IMG/VR virus record: IMGVR_UViG_3300034065_000114
Coordinates: 54,472 to 74,471 of that record
Strand: one strand, 5' to 3'
DNA from: an uncultured virus (IMG/VR IMGVR_UViG_3300034065_000114)
Lineage: Duplodnaviria; Heunggongvirae; Uroviricota; Caudoviricetes
DNA length: 20,000 nt
The notes below the pieces were generated by a model. It was not told the origin of the DNA. It did not search any database and saw only the letters and a program-made list of their open reading frames with translations. This document shows positions 1-20,000 of this stretch, piece by piece. The position numbers were made by a program, and so were the translations under genes. Every line of letters begins with the position of its first letter. Position 1 is the first letter of the stretch.

Positions 1-411
1 CTGTGGGGCCAAGTCGGTCAATACTTCGGCGTTGGCGGCGCCGGTGGTTCAGAGGATTCCTTTGAGGTGAGCCTCGTAGCCACGGCTGCGAGTATCAACG
101 CAGCGCACAGTGCTTGCTACCCCGTTCATACTGGCACACTGCAGGCGATCATCGCGGCCAAGATCCATCAGCCGATCGCGGGTAAGGGTGCGTTTTGCGA
201 CGCAACCCGCGGACTTGGTTTACCACTCACTGAGTGGATGTGCGGCCGCGCAACCGGCCAATCCTGGCTTAAGCAGTTCGAGCCGGATGTGTGGATAGAC
301 CAAAATCAGCGCTGCCCCAACTGGGAAGGCAAGCCGGATGCCGGCGGCAATATGACGCCGGGTGTTGACTTCTTCGAGGTTTACCGATTAGCCGCAGAAG
401 GCAATAGCTGA
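1..411 (+). CDS. Hypothetical protein, 3' part (open at window start)
   Basis: Frame 1 is open from base 1 (LWGQVGQYFG...) to TGA at 409-411. No recognised motif. Confidence 0.7.
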   Translation: MWGQVGQYFGVGGAGGSEDSFEVSLVATAASINAAHSACYPVHTGTLQAIIAAKIHQPIAGKGAFCDATRGLGLPLTEWMCGRATGQSWLKQFEPDVWIDQNQRCPNWEGKPDAGGNMTPGVDFFEVYRLAAEGNS

Positions 412-436
412 CAAGCCTTTCCAGGGAGTGTACAAT
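408..436 (+). promoter_or_regulatory. Sigma70-like promoter
   Basis: CTGACA (408-413), 17-nt spacer, TACAAT (431-436); upstream of a GGAGG RBS and ATG 483. Confidence 0.55.
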
Positions 437-3997: not shown

Positions 3998-6183
3998 TGC
4001 GCAAGCTCTTACTGGCCCTGGCCATCCTTGGCTTCGCTCCTACCGCGATGGCGGACACACCACCAGCACGAGTTATCAATGCTGAAGCATACGATGCTGC
4101 GGGTAACCCTATCGGCAGCACCAGCGGCAGCCTCAACGTCAACGTGACGAATCCGACTGGTCTGCCTGCGGGGGCGTCGACCGCCACGCTTCAGACCGCG
4201 GGGAACACCACGCTATCCTCGATTGACACCGCGCTCAGCTCGGTTTCGACCGCGGCCAATCAGGCGTCTGAAATAACCTACCTCAACGACATCAACGGTA
4301 AGATCTCGGCCTTCAACTTGAACACGAGCGGCGCCGAATACGACCAGGGCGTGTCGCTGCGCTTCGCCTCCCCTGGTGGCTCAATCCCGGCCGGTGTCGA
4401 TGCAAACCCCCTGCGCGTAGACCCCACTGGAACGACGACTCAGCCCGTAAGTGCCGATTCGCTTCCGCTGCCTACTGGAGCGGCAACGGAGTCGACGCTC
4501 TCCACCCTCAATGGGAAGCTGACGACAACGTCGAATGGGATCAAGGTGGACGGCTCAGCGACAACCCAACCAATCTCGGCCTCCGCGCTACCTTTACCGA
4601 CGGGTGCCTCAACTGATGCCACGCTCAGCGCCCTCAGCGCCAAGCTAGGCACGCTCGGGCAGAAGGCCATGGCGGGCTCGGCCCCGGTCGTGATCGCCTC
4701 TGACCAGGCACCCATCCCGGTGTCCGGTACGTTCAGTGCCACGAACCCGTCCATTGCCACGAACGGCTCGGCCATCCCGGCGAGCTCTACCCAGGTGGGC
4801 GGCAAAGACAACTCAGGCAACCTCCAGCCACTTCAGCTGACGTCCACCAAAGCCCTGATCGTGGACGCCTCGGCCACCACGCAGCCCGTCAGCGGGACGT
4901 TCTGGCAGGCCACGCAGCCTGTCTCAGGAACGATCGCCGTCTCGAACCTCCCCGTCACTCAGCCGGTGAGTGTAGCAAGTCTGCCTCTGCCAGCGGGTGC
5001 GGCAACGTCCGCCCTACAAAGCACGGGGAACACCTCGCTCTCCGACATCGACACCAAGCTCCCTGCGCTTGTCAGCAGCCGTGTCCCCGTGGACGGATCT
5101 GGCGTAACTCAGCCAGTTAGTGGCACGTTTTGGCAGACGACACAGCCCGTAAGTGGCACGGTCACGGTCAACCAGGGAACGGCTGGCGCCTCGGCTTGGA
5201 AGGTAGACGGGTCCGCAGTGACGCAGCCTGTCTCCGGCACCTTCTGGCAGGCCACGCAGCCCGTCAGTGGCACCGTGACGGCCAACGCCGGCACAGGGAC
5301 GTTCGCGGTCAGCGCCGCGAGCCTCCCGCTTCCGACCGGTGCCTCGACGGCGGCTAAGCAGCCAGCGCTCGGCACGGCGGGTACGGCCTCCACAGATGTC
5401 ATCACGGTGCAGGGCATCGCGTCCATGACCGCTCTGAAGGTGGATGGCTCAGCTGTTACCCAGCCCGTCTCCGGTACCTTCTGGCAGTCGACCCAGCCGG
5501 TGAGCGCGGCGAGCTTGCCTCTGCCAGCCGGTGCGGCCACCAGTGCGCTGCAAACGACCGGCAATACGTCCCTCTCCGACATCGACACGAAGACGGCAAC
5601 GCTCGTCAGTGGTCGCGTGCCAGTTGACGGGTCCGGTGTGACCCAGCCCGTGAGCGGGACGTTTTGGCAGGCCACCCAGCCCGTCAGCGGCTCAGTCAGC
5701 GTGTCCAATTTCCCTGGCTCGCAGGCGGTCACTGGGACCTTCTGGCAGTCCACGCAGCCGGTGAGCCTGGCAACCGTCCCACTGCCCTCGGGAGCGGCCA
5801 CGTCCGCCAATCAGGCGACGGAAATCTCGTCGCTGTCGTCGATCGCGGCCTCGGTGGCGGCGCCCCAGGCAAGTCCGGTGGGCCGGAGCTATGCCGACAG
5901 CATTAGGAACGTCTACAGTTCGACGACGGTCGGGACGGTCAGTTGGGTGCAGGTGAGTGCCTCCACGGCCGCCACCATGAATGTCGTGTCGATCTTCGAC
6001 AGCTGCGGGCAGGTCCTGGAGCTTGGTGTTGGTGCCCTGGGCAGCGAGGTGCGGAAGACGCTCATCCCGCCCGGCGGCCTCTACAACTGGCCCCTTCTGA
6101 TCCCAGGAGGCTCGCGCATATCGCTGCGGGCGGTAAGCGCGACGTGCTCCAAAGGAGAATTTGACATGACGGGTCTCAATTGA
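3997..6183 (+). CDS. Repeat-rich fibre/surface protein with signal-peptide-like N-terminus
   Basis: GAGG RBS; MRKLLLALAILGFAPTAMA-D; many TQPVS, GTFWQ and LPLPxGA repeats; about 95-aa globular C-terminal domain. Confidence 0.8.
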   Translation: MRKLLLALAILGFAPTAMADTPPARVINAEAYDAAGNPIGSTSGSLNVNVTNPTGLPAGASTATLQTAGNTTLSSIDTALSSVSTAANQASEITYLNDINGKISAFNLNTSGAEYDQGVSLRFASPGGSIPAGVDANPLRVDPTGTTTQPVSADSLPLPTGAATESTLSTLNGKLTTTSNGIKVDGSATTQPISASALPLPTGASTDATLSALSAKLGTLGQKAMAGSAPVVIASDQAPIPVSGTFSATNPSIATNGSAIPASSTQVGGKDNSGNLQPLQLTSTKALIVDASATTQPVSGTFWQATQPVSGTIAVSNLPVTQPVSVASLPLPAGAATSALQSTGNTSLSDIDTKLPALVSSRVPVDGSGVTQPVSGTFWQTTQPVSGTVTVNQGTAGASAWKVDGSAVTQPVSGTFWQATQPVSGTVTANAGTGTFAVSAASLPLPTGASTAAKQPALGTAGTASTDVITVQGIASMTALKVDGSAVTQPVSGTFWQSTQPVSAASLPLPAGAATSALQTTGNTSLSDIDTKTATLVSGRVPVDGSGVTQPVSGTFWQATQPVSGSVSVSNFPGSQAVTGTFWQSTQPVSLATVPLPSGAATSANQATEISSLSSIAASVAAPQASPVGRSYADSIRNVYSSTTVGTVSWVQVSASTAATMNVVSIFDSCGQVLELGVGALGSEVRKTLIPPGGLYNWPLLIPGGSRISLRAVSATCSKGEFDMTGLN
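4435..5810 (+). repeat. Coding repeats (VDGSxVTQPVSGTFWQxTQPVS and SLPLPxGAATS)
   Basis: About 13 TQPVS, 6 GTFWQ and about 6 LPLPxGA units; a 60-aa block is duplicated at 4978-5157 and 5512-5691. Confidence 0.9.
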
Positions 6184-13600: not shown

Positions 13601-14013
13601 TAGCGGCCAAAGTTAGGCGCCAAGCCAGGCCAGGAATCCCCTGACGGCGGCGGCGCGTAGTTGCCTGATCTGTAATCATTTGGCCCTGGGCTAAACCCAC
13701 GGGAAAAAGCAGTCGCTACCGGCGCCGGTGCAACGGGTAGCGGCTGTGCGCCACTTATCCCAAATCTCTCCTTGACCGCATCGACCTCTGGCCCATGCCC
13801 CTTCCCAAACTTCCTCCCCATCTCGATCATTGCGTGGCCACCAGCTACAATAGCCATCTCGCCCGCTACCCTGAAGGCTGTTTTTAGTGTGAAAACCAAC
13901 AGATCCCTCCAGAAGGAGGCGGTGACTAGCTGGCCAAACAAATCGTTGACCAGCACACCTACGGACTTGACAAGTCCCTTGTTTGCCTCAATGGCAGGTT
14001 GTGGTTTCTGCAT
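13600..14013 (-). CDS. Hypothetical protein, amphipathic N-half and Pro/Gly-rich tail
   Basis: GAGGAGG RBS 9 nt before ATG; coupled to the Zn-finger gene. Confidence 0.75.
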   Translation of the reverse strand: MQKPQPAIEANKGLVKSVGVLVNDLFGQLVTASFWRDLLVFTLKTAFRVAGEMAIVAGGHAMIEMGRKFGKGHGPEVDAVKERFGISGAQPLPVAPAPVATAFSRGFSPGPNDYRSGNYAPPPSGDSWPGLAPNFGR

Positions 14014-14092
14014 CTACCTTGGCCTCCTCTGTGCTAGACTTACGTGGGGCGGACAGGATAATTTCAATGGCGATTTCAAGTAGCTCGATCAA
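13988..14092 (-). CDS. Possible 34-aa peptide (not in ORF track)
   Basis: AAGGAGG RBS 7 nt before TTG; MIELLEIAIEIILSAPRKSSTEEAKVDAETTTCH*; first ORF after promoter copy 2. Confidence 0.5.
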   Translation of the reverse strand: MIELLEIAIEIILSAPRKSSTEEAKVDAETTTCH

Positions 14093-14115: not shown

Positions 14116-14137
14116 TTCTTCTCAAGGGGCTTATACC
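14116..14137 (-). promoter_or_regulatory. Putative phage-specific promoter, copy 2
   Basis: Minus strand GGTATAAGCCCCTTGAGAAGAA; the core ends 37 nt before TTG 14092. Confidence 0.65.
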
Positions 14138-14145
14138 AAAGGCCT

Positions 14146-17100
14146 ATGCGAAATTTTGACCCCACACAGCAGTTCGCTGCGATCAAGAAGTCGGCCACTG
14201 ATGCGGTCAAAGAGATCTTCCCCGTTGAGGGCAAGCTCCGCACGATCCGCTTGGTAGACGTGACCGTCAACGACACGCTGGATCCGACCGACTATAAGTC
14301 GCAAGTCCAGTCCAAGGAGCGCGAAGGTACTTGGGGCGCCCCCGTCATGGCCGAGCTTGAGCTCGTGGATAAAACCACAAACAAAGTGATCGACAAGGCT
14401 AAGGTCAAACTCTTCACTTTGCCAAAGCTGACCAACCGTTTCAGCTACATCGTCAACGGCAACGAATACCAAGTGCACAACCAGCTTCGCTTGAAGTCTG
14501 GTGTGTACACCCTGCGTAAGCAGAACGGAGAACTCAAGACGCAAGTAAACCTTGCGAAGGGGAAGAACTTTGACCTTGCCTTTAACGAACGTACAGGATT
14601 ATTCACGATCCAAAAAGTGGGCGGCGGCCAAGCGAATATCCCTCTCTACCCTGTTCTTACTCATCTCGGTATTAGTCCTACTGGTATTGCCACTGCTTGG
14701 GGCTCTCAACTACAGCAAGCTAACTCTAAGGCCGACCCCAAAGCCGTCGCCCGCACCGAGTCAGCATTCGGGATCAAACCGGGCGAGCTGAAAGACTACC
14801 TAGCGAAGACCGTGCTAAACCCTGAGACGACGAAGACCGTGCTAGGCCAGAGCTACGAGCGCGTCGACGGCCCGCTGCTGCTCGCCGCGGCGAAAGACCT
14901 CCTGCAAGTCCACCTCGGCCAGAAGGAGCCGACCGACCGCGACTCGCTGGCGTTCAAAGAGCTGCACTCGGTCGAGGACTTCATCCACGAGCGCATCCAA
15001 AAGAATAAACAGCCCCTGGCCTTCAAGCTTCGCCGCAACGTCGACAACCTCAAGCGTGACAAATTGTCACAAATTGTGAATCCCGGCGCGTTCCAGTCGA
15101 CCGTCGAAGGCTTCTTCACCCAAGACGATAAGAGCGCCACGCCTGAGCAGACCAACCCAGTCGAGATGCTCGCCGGCCAATACATGACGACGATCATGGG
15201 CTCGGGCGGCATTGGTTCCGACCATGCCGTGACGGCAGGCATGCGCGAGATTCATCCGTCACATTACGGGTTTATGGACCCGATACACACGCCGGAGTGC
15301 TACGACCCCGAAACAGAAGTGCTAACCCAAGAAGGCTGGAAGAAGTGGCCTGACGTAACCAAGAAGGATCTCTTCGCCTGCCGTATAGACGGCGAGCTGC
15401 AATTCCATAAAGCTGAGGCCCTACACCGCAGCCACTACGAAGGGACCATGTACGGGGCGCAGACCGGCAAGCTTGACTACTTGGTTACGCCTAATCACCG
15501 TATGCTCGTGCGCCCGCTGGACTCGAAATTAAACGCTTGGCGTATTGCCTCTGCCGAAGAGATTCACCGCAAACCCAGAACGTTCTGCACCACACATGAA
15601 CCATTCAAGGGCAATAGCGACTTCACTCGCTATGCCTTTCAGTACGTGCCCGGCAGCAACTCCATGGTCCATACAGAGAGTGTGGATATCGGGGACTGGT
15701 GTGAGTTCATGGGGTGGTTCCTGGCAGAAGGCAGCACCCACATCTCTTCGAAGGTGTCTGACTACCGCGTGCACATCTTCCAAAGCAAAGAAGCCAACCC
15801 AGAGAGCTGCGCCCGGATTGAGAGACTCTTAAACCGGTTACCCTGGACTTGGAGCTTCAGCAGCGGGAACGCATACACCATTTGTGGCAAGGAACTCGTT
15901 TGCCAACTAAACGGTCAGGGCTACTGCGACACTAAGTTCATACCTACTGAGCTGCTATCTGCACCCGTCGCCGCAAGAACCAGGATGCTAGAGGCCCTCT
16001 TGCGGGGGGATGGGCGCATAGACTCTGTCAGGGCAACCGGGGTTCGCTATAAGCAACAGGTGTTTACCACCACAAGCAAACGACTGGCCGAGGGCTTTGA
16101 GCAATTAGCCATAGGCCTCGGTTACTCAGTCCGCACTGGGCAATACAAAGACAAACGGGAAGAGCGATACCTCGACACTTACGAAGTCAGGTTACTACAG
16201 CGTCTTACCCGCTCGGCGAGAAAGCACAACAATCGTCGGAAGAGCTGCGACTACTTTACTACCCAGTATTGTGGCGAGGTTCACTGCGCCACAGTGCCAG
16301 GCGGCCTCTTGTTCGTACGCAGAAACGGCAGCGTACCCATCTGGCTAGGCAACAGCTCGCGTGTGGGTGTAAACATGCACCTACCCATGGGCATACAGAA
16401 AGACGGTAAAGACCTCAAGATGACCGTGCTGCGCCCCGACGGCCGGACGAGCACGACGATCAACCCGACTGAAGCCTACGAAGCGCGGGTCGCGTTCCCC
16501 GGCCAAATGCCCGGCGACTCGCCGACGGTAAAGGTCCAGTACCGCGGCAAGTCTATCGTTGTTCCACGTGGAACAGTCGACTACTACACACCCGCGCCGT
16601 CGGCGCTCTTCTCCTGGTCGACCAACCTGATCCCGTTCTTGCCATCGACCCAGGGCAACCGGTCGATGATGGCCTCGAAGATGATCGAGCAGGCTATCGC
16701 GCTCAAGCACAGGGAAGCACCGCTGATCCAAGTGGAGTCGAAACCCGGGTCGTCGTTTGAGGAGAACATCGGCAACAGCCTGGCGATCCTGGCACCGGCC
16801 GACGGCGTGATCAAAAAGGTCACGAAGGACGCGTTAGTGCTACGCACAAGCGAAGGCGACAAGATCTTCAATCTCTATAACAACTTCACGCTCAACCGTA
16901 AGTCCTTCATGAACCACGAGCCGCTCGTGAAGGTCGGCGACCGCGTCAAGAAGGGGCAAGTCCTCGCGGATAGCAACTTCACCAAGGGCGGCACGCTCGC
17001 GCTTGGCACCAACATGCGTGTGGCCTACCTCCCCTATAAAGGTCTGAACTTCGAAGACGGGATCGTCATCACTGAGTCCGCCGCGGACAAGCTGACAAGC

Positions 17101-20000
17101 GAACACATCCACAAGAAGAGCAAGGATCTCAGCGACGCCAACATCCTTGGTCTCTCCGCCTTCCGTAGCTTCTACCCAAACACGCTATCCGCACAGAACA
17201 TGGCCAAGCTTGACGAGCAGGGCATCATCAAGAAGGGACAGACGGTCCGCCACGGCGAAGCCCTTGCGGCTATCCTCCAGCGCCGCGGTGCGTCGCCCAT
17301 GATCAGCGTCGTCAACCGCGCGCTATCCGAACGCCCCAAAGACGCGTCCATGTATTGGACGCTCGAGGACGACGGCCAGGTTATTGACGTGCAGAAGACA
17401 CCGACCGGCGTCACCGTGTGCGTGAAGACCGAAGAGCGCGCCCGCATCGGGGACAAGCTCTCCGGCCGCTACGGCAACAAGGGTATCATCACCAAGATCC
17501 TGGCCGACAAGGAAGCGCCGCGCGACGCGTCAGGAAAGCCCGTCGAGATCTTGCTCAATCCTCACGGCGTTATCACCCGTATCAACGTCAGCCAGATCTA
17601 TGAAAGCGCTACCAGCAAGGCCGCGCTCAAGGCTGGCAAGCCTATCAGGGTCAGCAACTTTGACGGCGGGAACAACCTTGACCTTACGAAGGGGATTATC
17701 GACAAGGCGGGCACTCCCGACAAAGAGGAGCTTTTTGACCCAACGACCGGGAAGAGTCTCGGCAAAGTCCATGTCGGTAACCCCTATATCCTAAAATTAT
17801 TCAAGCAAGGTACGGTCAACTTCTCTGTCCGTCAAGGCGGCCCCGGCAATCCTTACGATGCCACAAACCGTCAGCCACTTAAAGCCGGCGGTGAAGAGGG
17901 CGCGAAGGCTATGGACGTGCTCACTACGTATGCCATGCTGGCCCACGGCGCACGCGCTAATCTAAGAGAAATGGGGACGATCAAGAGCGACCAGAACGAC
18001 GAGTTCTGGAAGGCTTTGAAGTCCGGCCAGCCACTGCCGCCGCCCAAGTCCCCGTTTGTCTACGACAAGTTCATGGGCTACCTGCGCGCCGCGGGCATTG
18101 ACGTTAAGAAAGACGGGAGCAAGCTCACGCTGGCGCCCCTGACGGATAAGCAGGTTCTTAAGCAAAGCTCCGGCGAGATTAAGAACATCCAGTTCTACCG
18201 CGGCAAAGGCGAAGGCGAGAAAGAGCCAATGAAGGGCGGCTTCTTTGACAAGACGCTCACCGGCGGCTACAAGGGCGAGAAGTGGAACCACATCGAGCTT
18301 CATGAGCCGGTGGTCAACCCTGTCTTCGAAGTCGCAGTCAGCAAGCTCACCGGCCTCGGCAAAAAGTACGACGACGTCGTCGCCGGCAAACTGCATTTGG
18401 ACCCCAAAACAGGGTTGTTTAATACCGAGGGCAAGGGCCTGACCGGCGGGCGCGCCGTTGAACATTTGTTAAAGCAAATCGACGTCGACGCCGAGATGAA
18501 GTCGCAGCTGCGCATCGCTAGCAAGGCCACCGGCGCCGCGCTCGACGACGCCAATAAGCGCATGCGCTATTTAACTGCGTTAAAAGTTAACGGCCTGAGC
18601 CCTGCGGAAGCCTACATCCGCAAGTCCGTGCCGATCCTGCCGCCGGCCTACCGGCCAATCTATCCTTTACCGGATGGGTCGATGGGCAGCTCGGACATCA
18701 ACTATCTCTACCAGCACGCCGGTGTGCTCAACACCATGGCGAAGCTGCCAGTCATGGACCTCCTCGCCGAAGAGGAGAAGGCTGGAATCCGCAGCGACGT
18801 CAACCAGTCCGTCAAAGCGATTGCGGGTCTGACTGACCTGGCGATCAAGGGCCGCACGCGGGAAGGCTTCATCTCCGAGATCAAAGGCGGCACTGGCGGC
18901 CAGCCCAAAGAGGGCTTCTTCATCAGCAAGATGATCTCGAAGAAACAGGACTTCGTCGGCCGCGGCACGATCATCCCCGAGCCCGATCTCGGCATCGACG
19001 AGATGGCCATGCCCGAAGAGATGGCATGGAAGCTTTTCGAGCCATTCGTTATTCGCGAATTGAAGAACCACGGGAAGAACCCGCTGCAAGCCCAGGATGA
19101 GATTAAGAATAAAACCCCCTTGGCAAAGCGCGCGCTCGACATCGTCATGGCCCAGCGCCATGTCCTGCTCAACAGAGCGCCGTCGCTGCACAAGTTCTCA
19201 ATCATGGCCTTCCGCCCCAAGATCACTGCCGGCCGCGCGCTGAAGATTCCACCGCTAGTTTGCAAAGGATTTAATGCTGACTTCGACGGCGATGATCAAC
19301 AGAATTTGATAGCGACATTCGTAACAAATGAAGGTATAAGCAATCTGTTAAAGATTGTAAAGCCATCTTTTGTTACGGAGAGGATCATGACAGCCCGATT
19401 TAAGGTTCAACTGCCGACCATGAATCATAAAGGTGAGATTTTATTGTTCAACTTAGAAGACTTTCCCCATGGAGAGCTTCTAGGCAGCAAAGAAGGGGAA
19501 AAGGGTAGGATAGATTTCTACAGGGCACTGCCAGGATTCCATGTTGTGGCCCACGATGCTGTCACTGGCAGGTTGGATTGGAAGCCGGTGTTTGGTTGGT
19601 CGAAGCACTACCAGCGCGAGGTAGAAGTTGTTACGCTTGCCAGCGGGCAGCAAATAATCACGGATGATGATCCGCGGGCTATTTACGGAATCGCGCGCGG
19701 TAGCCTAGAATTTAGCCGCTTCCGCCCTAAAGATGCCACAGGTGTCTTTGTTCCAAGAGCCTCCAGAATCACTTTAGACGGGGCTCCTATTTACAATGCA
19801 GTGCCTTTTGGTGATAAAGAATTGCAACCGCTCAATGAGGACTTTGGTTACTTCGTTGGCTGTTTGGTCTCCAACGGGTGGGTTGAGCATCATCTAGAAA
19901 AACCTACAGGGAGGGTTTTCCTCGCAGCTAAGACAGAGGAAGTCTCCAGAAAATACCTGCGCATAGTAAAAGAATTATTCGGCGATCGCCACATTTGTCG
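14146..20000 (+). CDS. rpoBC: Fused beta-beta' DNA-directed RNA polymerase precursor with two intein(-like) inserts; truncated by window end
   Basis: One open frame from ATG 14146. Beta motifs: SYIVNGNEY, IHPSHYGFMDPIHTPE, LIPFLPSTQGNRSMMASKMIEQA, GLNFEDGI, GDKLSGRYGNKG, LLNPHGVITRIN, EMGTIKSD. Beta' motifs: HIEL, VPILPPAYRP, KKQDFVGRGTI, LLNRAPSLH, FNADFDGD (NADFDGD at 19273-19293). Confidence 0.95.
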   Translation, partial: MRNFDPTQQFAAIKKSATDAVKEIFPVEGKLRTIRLVDVTVNDTLDPTDYKSQVQSKEREGTWGAPVMAELELVDKTTNKVIDKAKVKLFTLPKLTNRFSYIVNGNEYQVHNQLRLKSGVYTLRKQNGELKTQVNLAKGKNFDLAFNERTGLFTIQKVGGGQANIPLYPVLTHLGISPTGIATAWGSQLQQANSKADPKAVARTESAFGIKPGELKDYLAKTVLNPETTKTVLGQSYERVDGPLLLAAAKDLLQVHLGQKEPTDRDSLAFKELHSVEDFIHERIQKNKQPLAFKLRRNVDNLKRDKLSQIVNPGAFQSTVEGFFTQDDKSATPEQTNPVEMLAGQYMTTIMGSGGIGSDHAVTAGMREIHPSHYGFMDPIHTPECYDPETEVLTQEGWKKWPDVTKKDLFACRIDGELQFHKAEALHRSHYEGTMYGAQTGKLDYLVTPNHRMLVRPLDSKLNAWRIASAEEIHRKPRTFCTTHEPFKGNSDFTRYAFQYVPGSNSMVHTESVDIGDWCEFMGWFLAEGSTHISSKVSDYRVHIFQSKEANPESCARIERLLNRLPWTWSFSSGNAYTICGKELVCQLNGQGYCDTKFIPTELLSAPVAARTRMLEALLRGDGRIDSVRATGVRYKQQVFTTTSKRLAEGFEQLAIGLGYSVRTGQYKDKREERYLDTYEVRLLQRLTRSARKHNNRRKSCDYFTTQYCGEVHCATVPGGLLFVRRNGSVPIWLGNSSRVGVNMHLPMGIQKDGKDLKMTVLRPDGRTSTTINPTEAYEARVAFPGQMPGDSPTVKVQYRGKSIVVPRGTVDYYTPAPSALFSWSTNLIPFLPSTQGNRSMMASKMIEQAIALKHREAPLIQVESKPGSSFEENIGNSLAILAPADGVIKKVTKDALVLRTSEGDKIFNLYNNFTLNRKSFMNHEPLVKVGDRVKKGQVLADSNFTKGGTLALGTNMRVAYLPYKGLNFEDGIVITESAADKLTSEHIHKKSKDLSDANILGLSAFRSFYPNTLSAQNMAKLDEQGIIKKGQTVRHGEALAAILQRRGASPMISVVNRALSERPKDASMYWTLEDDGQVIDVQKTPTGVTVCVKTEERARIGDKLSGRYGNKGIITKILADKEAPRDASGKPVEILLNPHGVITRINVSQIYESATSKAALKAGKPIRVSNFDGGNNLDLTKGIIDKAGTPDKEELFDPTTGKSLGKVHVGNPYILKLFKQGTVNFSVRQGGPGNPYDATNRQPLKAGGEEGAKAMDVLTTYAMLAHGARANLREMGTIKSDQNDEFWKALKSGQPLPPPKSPFVYDKFMGYLRAAGIDVKKDGSKLTLAPLTDKQVLKQSSGEIKNIQFYRGKGEGEKEPMKGGFFDKTLTGGYKGEKWNHIELHEPVVNPVFEVAVSKLTGLGKKYDDVVAGKLHLDPKTGLFNTEGKGLTGGRAVEHLLKQIDVDAEMKSQLRIASKATGAALDDANKRMRYLTALKVNGLSPAEAYIRKSVPILPPAYRPIYPLPDGSMGSSDINYLYQHAGVLNTMAKLPVMDLLAEEEKAGIRSDVNQSVKAIAGLTDLAIKGRTREGFISEIKGGTGGQPKEGFFISKMISKKQDFVGRGTIIPEPDLGIDEMAMPEEMAWKLFEPFVIRELKNHGKNPLQAQDEIKNKTPLAKRALDIVMAQRHVLLNRAPSLHKFSIMAFRPKITAGRALKIPPLVCKGFNADFDGDDQQNLIATFVTNEGISNLLKIVKPSFVTERIMTARFKVQLPTMNHKGEILLFNLEDFPHGELLGSKEGEKGRIDFYRALPGFHVVAHDAVTGRLDWKPVFGWSKHYQREVEVVTLASGQQIITDDDPRAIYGIARGSLEFSRFRPKDATGVFVPRASRITLDGAPIYNAVPFGDKELQPLNEDFGYFVGCLVSNGWVEHHLEKPTGRVFLAAKTEEVSRKYLRIVKELFGDRHIC
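15298..16353 (+). mobile_element. Intein (352 aa) with LAGLIDADG homing endonuclease in the beta moiety
   Basis: TPE|CYDPETEVLTQEGW (block A), VTPNHRM (B), FMGWFLAEG and LEALLRGDG (C, E), TTTSKRLAEG (H), VHCATVPGG (F), WLGN|S (G). Removing it gives TPE-SSRVG, matching bacterial TPEGPNIG. Confidence 0.93.
19294..20000 (+). mobile_element. Atypical intein-like HINT/LAGLIDADG insert directly after the catalytic NADFDGD (partial)
   Basis: RNAP homology stops at NADFDGD and the DNA becomes AT-richer. HINT-like VVAHDAVTGRLDWKPV...VVTLASGQQIITDDDPRAIY; LAGLIDADG-like DFGYFVGCLVSNGW. Confidence 0.8.
19333..19389 (+). promoter_or_regulatory. Promoter motif copy 3 with RBS and in-frame ATG inside the intein-like insert
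   Basis: GGTATAAGCAATCTGTTAAAGA (15/22 to copy 1), GGAGAGG at 19377-19383, ATG at 19387. Confidence 0.5.

Follow-up and report, generated by a model that had tools for sequence, protein, structure and literature searches.

An intein is generally assumed to rely on its host gene to be expressed. Can an intein also carry a promoter and a start codon of its own, embedded in the sequence that is translated as part of the host protein? This question is raised by a 20,000-nucleotide (nt) stretch of DNA (the window, whose coordinates are used unless stated otherwise), the final 20 kb of one viral contig (74,471 bp; GC content 0.565; IMG/VR record IMGVR_UViG_3300034065_000114). An open reading frame (ORF) on its plus strand (14146-19998) encodes a fused beta-beta' RNA polymerase, of which 1951 codons are seen before it runs off the contig end; the assignment comes from the ORF list, the translation and Pfam (RNA_pol_Rpb2_6, 5e-50; Rpb1_2, 2e-25; Rpb2_3). 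Two inteins interrupt this ORF. The second (plus strand, 19294-19998, 235 codons seen) directly follows NADFDGD (plus strand, 19273-19293), the catalytic Mg-binding motif of beta', which ends the N-extein and was located from the translation and from intein-free relatives. Judging from the sequences of the window and its relatives, this second insert most likely holds a conserved in-frame expression cassette, placed at the point where the intein is naturally split in other phages.

The cassette would occupy the 93 nt from NADFDGD to Met1748 of the ORF (plus strand, 19294-19386; the linker), which encode the first beta-strand of the intein (the IntN equivalent) and a variable loop. The linker is read through in frame and has a GC content of 0.35, compared with 0.49 in the remaining intein and 0.58 in the extein. 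A reading made from the sequence alone (the sequence-only reading) had placed a promoter-like motif about 40 nt into the insert, with GGAGAGG-ATC-ATG 46 nt further on in the polymerase frame, and each element is where it was said to be. The motif, GGTATAAG, lies in sense orientation at 19333-19340, starts at the 40th nt of the insert, and is an 8-mer used across the lineage (see below). It is followed on the same strand by the Shine-Dalgarno (SD)-like GGAGAGG (19374-19380; anti-SD duplex of -6.6 kcal/mol), by ATC and, 46 nt after GGTATAAG, by the in-frame ATG of Met1748 (19387-19389). This ATG is the proposed start of a product beginning MTARFKVQLP, and in stand-alone relatives the aligned residue is Met1. 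Between the GGAG core and the ATG there are 6 nt (AGGATC), so the sequence has what is expected of an initiation region, an SD 5-10 nt upstream of the start that is conserved in relatives. Weak folding (z +1.0) is predicted for the putative leader (19347-19420), and its centroid structure leaves the SD unpaired. One open frame spans the linker, and the window therefore does not have the separate N- and C-terminal genes of a split intein.

Such separate genes are found in related phages. The gene is fused in 16 of 27 IMG/VR loci, and in the other 11 a stop ahead of the HINT ORF divides it. After a metagenome scan there were 58 unique loci with an assignable start column, comprising 45 fused (window included) and 13 split, and in the split loci the second gene begins at or near the window's Met. 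Many homologs are stand-alone proteins of 550-850 residues that start at the column of this Met (M32, nearly invariant) and end about 95 residues after the intein. We read four split loci in detail (L012, L016, L020 and L025). The upstream gene stops inside the linker stretch, 21, 24 and 13 codons after DFDGD in L012, L016 and L020, respectively. The spacer of L012 contains TTGACA-17-TATAGT, an SD and ATG, and that of L016 contains TTGACT-17-TATATT, AAGGAG and ATG. In L020 it is about 1.25 kb long, with a terminator hairpin, TTGACA..TATTAA and ATG, and the L020 group lacks an SD; the spacer of L025 has the same design as that of L020. In this group of closely related contigs (L020-L027 and L075-L085), the halves are about 1.25 kb apart (nt 3710-4960 of L020) with another ORF between them, and the second half has a promoter and no SD.

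In the structural model of a close relative (described below), a first strand is followed by a loop holding the Met, an arrangement shared with split inteins whose N-piece is very short. A tree of the N-terminal half of the intein (57 rows), in which the window groups with L001 and L029, requires at least three changes between fused and split forms, two of them forced by well-supported branches. A complex prediction pairing the tail of the N-piece of L012 with its C-piece scored 0.00, which we treat as no answer. As a separate observation from the alignment, the second gene of split-form phages (P0012, P0058, P0067, P0099, P0126, P0147 and others) stops about 95 residues past the intein. This amounts to a further cut in beta', and the polymerases concerned consist of several pieces.

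The signals at this point are conserved in phages whose gene is still contiguous. At the codon aligned with ATG 19387, the 45 fused loci have ATG (25), GTG (5) or TTG (1), and in the remaining 14 the alignment slips and an ATG stands one or two codons off; a start-competent codon is thus present in 45/45. Where the start column encodes Val, the codon is always GTG (5/5), and the sole Leu is TTG. Only 0.19-0.44 of the Val codons in those ORFs are GTG and 0.18 of their Leu codons TTG, which gives a naive product of 3e-4. We also calculated the anti-SD pairing energy at positions -18 to -4 and ranked it against in-frame positions of the same ORF. The SD falls in the best 5% of positions in 28 of the 45 fused loci, where about two are expected (12/16 loci in the first set; Fisher p 2e-11). 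The sequence-only reading had named the ribosome-binding site and the Met as elements to look for in homologous inserts, and both recur there.

The SD is spelled in three reading frames, as AAG GAG (K-E), GGA GG (G-G), aca GGA Gta (T-G-V) or AGG AGG (R-R), while the linker peptide around it is otherwise poorly conserved; this points to selection on nucleotides. The linker is open in 45/58 loci, compared with our estimate that an AT-rich linker of 31 codons stays open by chance about once in ten, so both the read-through and the internal signals seem to be kept. Linker GC content is below that of the locus in 41/45 fused loci.

Many linkers of fused relatives also contain promoters of the sigma70 type. 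For each locus we compared the best TTGACA/TATAAT score in the 110 nt before the start with windows of the same ORF, and 20 of 44 fused loci fall in the top 5% (2.2 expected). Three of these (L008, L018 and L052) were discounted because the -35 element TTGACG is spelled by the DFDGD codons, which leaves 17/44; measured against shuffles of the same linker, 14/44 are in the top 5%. Examples are TTGACA-17-TATATT (L039 and L048), TTGACA-17-TATTAT (L041) and TTGACT-16/17-TATATT (L010 and L047). The -35 element is often encoded by a hydrophobic residue plus Asp, as xTT GAC. The linker of L148 (2092-2210 of that locus), which belongs to a contiguous intein, contains TTGACA-17-TATAAT, AGGAGGT and ATG, all in frame. 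With its Ser1 and ordinary block B, this intein shows that the cassette does not depend on the loss of N-terminal catalytic residues discussed below.

The promoter-like element of the window is of another kind, and its case depends on how GGTATAAG is used in the genome. The other two window copies are both on the minus strand in divergent intergenic regions. The copy at 14130-14137 heads leftward genes, diverges from the polymerase start (ATG 14146) and stands 37 nt from TTG 14092, which follows GGAGGG; the copy at 2197-2204 heads a small leftward gene and stands 38 nt from ATG 2158. The motif does therefore head both leftward islands, as the sequence-only reading had noted, and its motif-to-start distances of 38, 37 and 46 nt came out the same when re-counted. 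Three copies in the window compare with 0.20 expected, and 0/200 shuffles reach three. The whole contig has eight copies against 1.0 +/- 1.0 expected, with a maximum of five in 300 Markov-1 simulations. All seven copies other than the one in the insert are on the minus strand (7/7), and six of these lie between ORFs just upstream of leftward genes. The remaining one, at contig 16002-16009 on the minus strand and outside the window, falls within an ORF of 615 codons. The next leftward gene starts about 420 nt further on, no SD or start is nearby, and the copy may be a chance match or another internal promoter. The seven genomic copies share no -35 element. The insert copy lies inside the polymerase ORF and not between genes; its distance of 46 nt to the ATG compares with 20-79 nt for the copies upstream of leftward genes. 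Behind the copy that diverges from the polymerase start, there is also an ORF of about 34 codons (minus strand, 13988-14092; MIELLEIAIE...), which overlaps the start of the next leftward gene; a similar small ORF (VIEIFKV...) is found at about 4650-4710 in the polymerase orientation of L028 (contig G001).

We then compared relatives whose polymerase exteins are 67.6% (L001, on contig G001), 63.5% (L002, on G002) and 47% (L003) identical to that of the window. In G002, a complete 152-kb relative, 14/14 copies of GGTATAAG are on the strand opposite the polymerase gene (control, 2 and 2). They occupy 14 places between 65,088 and 151,907 (L088-L101), mostly before small leftward ORFs, all in AT-rich spots and with no evident -35; two follow terminator-like hairpins, several stand 13-60 nt before an SD and ATG, and one is just before the polymerase start, as in the window. 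The 18-kb contig G001 has three copies (control, 0). Two are in divergent intergenic regions, one of these at the polymerase start. The third is inside the intein linker in sense orientation, 23 nt before the ATG and with AAGGAGG between. Both linkers are 93 nt long, and the motif begins at nt 40 in the window and at nt 65 in L001, where it is read as (G)GG-TAT-AAG (G-Y-K) instead of GGT-ATA-AG (G-I-S). Given the different position and frame, GGTATAAG was not inherited as a piece of the protein. We estimate the chance of a match at about 1.7e-3 per linker, with four motif-using relatives examined. The sequence-only reading had named absence of the motif from homologs as a refuting outcome. The motif recurs in the L001 linker, at a non-homologous position and in another frame, and is missing from the linkers of G002, G003 and G004, which speaks against the reading. 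We consider GGTATAAG a candidate lineage-wide promoter of phages with a fused beta-beta' polymerase, and its exact conservation across phages with GC contents of 0.44-0.58 suggests to us that it is read by the phage's own enzyme.

How would such a cassette work? The 93-nt linker would encode the first strand and first loop of the intein and double as an expression cassette in the same frame. GGTATAAG would place a transcription start near 19347-19350, and the SD and ATG 19387 would initiate a second product, consisting of the intein minus its first strand, the LAGLIDADG endonuclease and the C-terminal part of beta'. As the full-length ORF would still be read through, the precursor and the N-truncated product would both be made. 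The sequence-only reading had proposed that the insert may express an N-truncated HINT-endonuclease product, possibly continuing into the beta' C-terminus, and the comparison with relatives lends support to the elements on which that proposal was built. We think it rather probable that the promoter and the start are both in use in this phage. Three uses are conceivable, in descending order of our preference: expression of the endonuclease could be uncoupled from that of the polymerase gene, by analogy with the intron endonucleases of T4; the second product could be a partner that takes the first strand of the precursor and splices in trans; or the gene could be switchable between one and two pieces by a single mutation.

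Several observations weigh against use of the promoter in this phage. GGTATAAG at 19333 has no -35 partner, and a sigma70-type promoter in the window's own linker was considered and rejected, as the consensus scan finds none at 19333 and the best score in the linker is ordinary when set against shuffles (0.405). Sigma70 -10 elements normally need T as their last base, and the last base of GGTATAAG departs from this. About one chance copy is expected per genome, so the insert copy needs support from its location and from relatives; on its own it is not significant, and one other copy is intragenic. The internal copy agrees only in part with the consensus that follows the seven genomic copies (GGTATAAGnanc.TGGAg). 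The linkers of G002, G003 and G004 are without GGTATAAG though these phages use it elsewhere, G005 is without any copy, and L029 has GGTATAGG at the position of the linker motif of L001. All this would fit an internal SD and ATG that are used on the full-length polymerase mRNA only, with the GGTATAAG of the insert being a chance match or inactive and giving neither a transcript nor a timing of its own, the more so since most fused loci keep the SD and start. Such a reading has difficulty with the linker of L001, where the same 8-mer is repeated at a non-homologous position and in another frame, with the sigma70-type linker promoters in 17/44 fused relatives (one a perfect consensus), and with the promoter found in 4/4 split relatives read in detail. 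We therefore regard it as rather unlikely, though worth keeping in mind.

Other observations weigh against use of the SD and start, or against the cassette as a whole. The SD of the window itself is of intermediate strength: it ranks in the best 4.4% when compared with the in-frame positions of the whole ORF, and at 8.2% when compared with the 183 downstream codons alone. A strong SD is absent in 17/45 fused loci, and one fused clade lacks it (L014, L015, L018, L056, L059, L060 and L062-L064). The statistics given above treat related loci as independent. No RNA run was listed as containing the sequence, and three metatranscriptome runs contained next to no words of it. The contig end falls within the second intein, so the C-terminus of the intein in this phage lies beyond it and is not readable. 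Perhaps, then, the promoter, SD and ATG are relics of a split ancestor, or stand one mutation from a split, and are no longer or not yet used, in which case the contiguous precursor alone would matter; the repeated changes on the intein tree, the clade that lost its SD and the unexceptional SD of the window all agree with this. Yet the SD (in three frames), the start-competent codon (GTG and TTG included) and promoter-like hexamers are retained in deep fused clades that are 35-45% identical and whose linker peptide is poorly conserved, and unselected signals of 4-6 nt would not last so long, which makes disuse improbable. It is also conceivable that the purine tract and Met are kept for protein structure, or for SD-like pausing that aids folding of the N-extein, and have nothing to do with initiation, since many members share the conserved peptide motif M[TSA]ARFK..LP. 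We give this very little weight: every Val in the start column is GTG and the Leu is TTG, the model places the Met in a loop of low confidence, stand-alone genes begin exactly there, and the SD is independent of frame. The reading we prefer remains that of an in-frame cassette from which a second, shorter product would be made.

What kind of element carries this cassette? Position, together with the fold and C-terminal junction of its relatives, identifies the second insert as an intein, and we conclude that it is a LAGLIDADG-bearing intein between DFDGD and Thr. Intein-free relatives read NADFDGD/TMTVHVP (L105, 74% identical; L109-L112 and others, L110 included), which places the element precisely between the final Asp and the native Thr. 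A HMMER search of 1.84 billion cluster representatives gave 235 relatives of the insert at E<=1e-3, 201 of them at E<=1e-10, most within fused polymerases of 2000-3500 residues and directly after DFDGD. LAGLIDADG_3 (Pfam) exceeds the cut-off in 18 of 19 homologs scanned, and the first LAGLIDADG motif of the window copy is FGYFVGCLVSNGW at 19843-19881. The C-terminal junction of complete relatives is ...GYDLTVPGYETFM..DGVILSN/TM.VHVP, with S-N/T invariant in 25 aligned relatives. In the INPHARED phages, matches end at or near NADFDGD in 30 of the 37 records listed. Searched by itself, the 235-residue insert had no sequence match in the PDB at E<=10 and none in Pfam, and single-protein patterns found no relatives of it in IMG/VR. 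A group I intron or structured RNA in the insert was rejected, as Rfam gave just a sub-threshold chance match to a snoRNA on the opposite strand.

The fold was assessed with an AlphaFold (AF2) model of the closest complete relative, L001, and not of the window copy. The model has 595 residues and a predicted local distance difference test (pLDDT) score of 77. It matches the homing endonuclease-bearing intein TliVMA with Z 20.6 and a root-mean-square deviation (rmsd) of 7.7 over 409 residues, PI-PfuI with Z 16.8, mini-inteins with Z 15-18 (rmsd 2.1-2.8) and the fused split intein 9hth (Aes123 PolB1) with Z 18.4 (rmsd 2.4); its residues 220-421 match I-DmoI with Z 15.5. In the structural match, intein residue 1 is the residue after DFDGD and the last residue is Asn. 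After DFDGD, the model shows the first strand at residues 35-41 and a helix at 42-50, and the Met falls in a loop of low confidence at 51-72.

The sequence-only reading had called the intein atypical, and it departs from the usual pattern in two ways that most of the family shares. The window copy has Asp at position 1 (19294-19296), where class 1 inteins require Cys, Ser or Thr, and its block B (ITDDDPRAIYG, 19657-19689) has no His, where class 1 has T-x-x-H. Among 112 family proteins with a DDDPR-type block B, all have TDDDPRA or a close variant without His, and 106 have a residue other than Cys, Ser or Thr at position 1, which is most often Gln (44), Asp (16), Glu (15) or Ala (10), and Cys or Ser in six. 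L140 and L148, with Cys1 or Ser1, have the usual block B S-x-D-H; in most family members, loss of the N-terminal nucleophile and loss of the block B His seem to have gone hand in hand. Members without both (family P0002-P0151) still keep Ser-Asn/Thr at the C-terminal junction. Class 2 and class 3 inteins also lack an N-terminal nucleophile, and the family resembles them in its position 1. Assignment to class 3 was rejected, as block F carries Asp (YDLTV motif) where class 3 has Cys. The +1 residue is Thr, and block B is TDDDPR without His. The missing residues suggest a splicing or cleavage chemistry that is not yet described.

The DFDGD/T site is also occupied by other elements. In L102-L104, L106 and L107 (from nt ~2044-2083 onward), which are close polymerase relatives (64-74% identical), we found a different intein at the same site, with Ser1 (SIDITT...) and a block B like TTEHHNF. 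In these five loci (5/5) the catalytic motif is NADFNGD, with Asn for the second Mg-binding Asp; L056 and L059 also have DFNGD, and L062 has DHNGD. We speculate that deamidation of this Asn-Gly, a pair prone to it, may bear on how such a polymerase could be active.

The rest of the window and contig offers little context. The first intein of the polymerase lies in beta (plus strand, 15298-16353) and was recognised from the translation and a weak Pfam match to LAGLIDADG_3; it has Cys1, a LAGLIDADG domain and a terminal Gly-Asn followed by Ser, and at its junctions (HTPE/C...GN/S) Gly replaces the His that usually precedes the terminal Asn. Ten neighbouring ORFs gave one weak portal-like match and one family without assigned function in PHROGs. 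Circular closure of the contig was rejected, since it lacks a terminal repeat and the polymerase ORF is not continued when the end is joined to the start. The contig starts inside a pentapeptide-repeat gene (contig 1-414, minus strand, outside the window) with a 15-nt tandem repeat, which probably explains why the assembly stops there.

Our literature search, which covered few subscription journals, turned up no report of a phage RNA polymerase with an intein at DFDGD and none of an intein that contains a promoter or start codon; the word "intein" does not occur in a paper on an RNA polymerase-encoding Caudovirales lineage (PMC7481178). Contiguous and split versions of one intein family share the same site of an essential polymerase, and the contiguous forms already hold conserved expression signals at the future break point. 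Both the transition from cis to trans and intein-controlled endonuclease expression thereby become directly testable. We consider it possible, though at somewhat less than an even chance, that these are "facultatively split" inteins, a family in which a promoter, ribosome-binding site and start are read in frame at the loop after the first strand. If so, one nonsense or frameshift mutation, or its reversal, would switch between the contiguous and two-gene forms without a dead intermediate, and contiguous forms would give both a precursor and a separately timed, endonuclease-bearing C-piece. This would answer how essential genes break at inteins, and inteins would gain the self-controlled endonuclease expression of phage introns. 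PMC2677866 treats as an open question how a split-intein pair can arise from an essential gene without passing through a lethal intermediate. Of interest for protein engineering are both the natural split inteins of the family, whose N-piece is short, and its members lacking Cys1 or the block B His; GGTATAAG is a promoter candidate for little-studied phages that encode a fused beta-beta' polymerase.

Several known systems share parts of this arrangement. One natural split intein whose N-fragment is very short is AceL-TerL. The geometry of a very small N-terminal part (IN) and a large C-terminal part (IC) is described in PMC3443213 and PMC3620165. Like these atypical split inteins, the relatives of the window break after the first beta-strand, giving an N-piece of 13-24 residues and a long C-piece. 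Unlike them, the window copy is contiguous, the long C-piece retains its LAGLIDADG endonuclease, position 1 is Asp and block B has no His. Fractured essential genes in phages and metagenomes provide another parallel: as far as the consulted sections of Dassa et al. (2009; PMC2677866) go, split inteins are there separated by a free-standing homing endonuclease gene, the breaking of a gene requires a new promoter and terminator, and viable intermediates are unclear. The loci studied here are similar in having promoter-like elements near the break and, in the L020 group, about 1.25 kb between the halves. They differ from what those sections describe in that the endonuclease is within the intein, the break is near the intein N-terminus, and the contiguous forms already contain the promoter and start.

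Internal in-frame starts are known as well. The "genes within genes" of a recent preprint, such as Rpn_S (bioRxiv 10.1101/2023.05.02.539157), give a shorter C-terminal product from an internal promoter or start, as we predict here. Compared with the portion of that preprint consulted, our case differs in that the start is inside an intein of a viral polymerase and coincides with a natural gene-split point. A functional parallel comes from mobile introns. The homing endonuclease ORFs of group I introns in phage T4 have their own middle or late promoters. As in T4, a mobile element in an essential phage gene appears, from its sequence, to bring its own expression signals. There, however, the elements are RNA introns with free-standing ORFs, whereas here no intron was matched in Rfam and the putative cassette is itself translated within the host protein.

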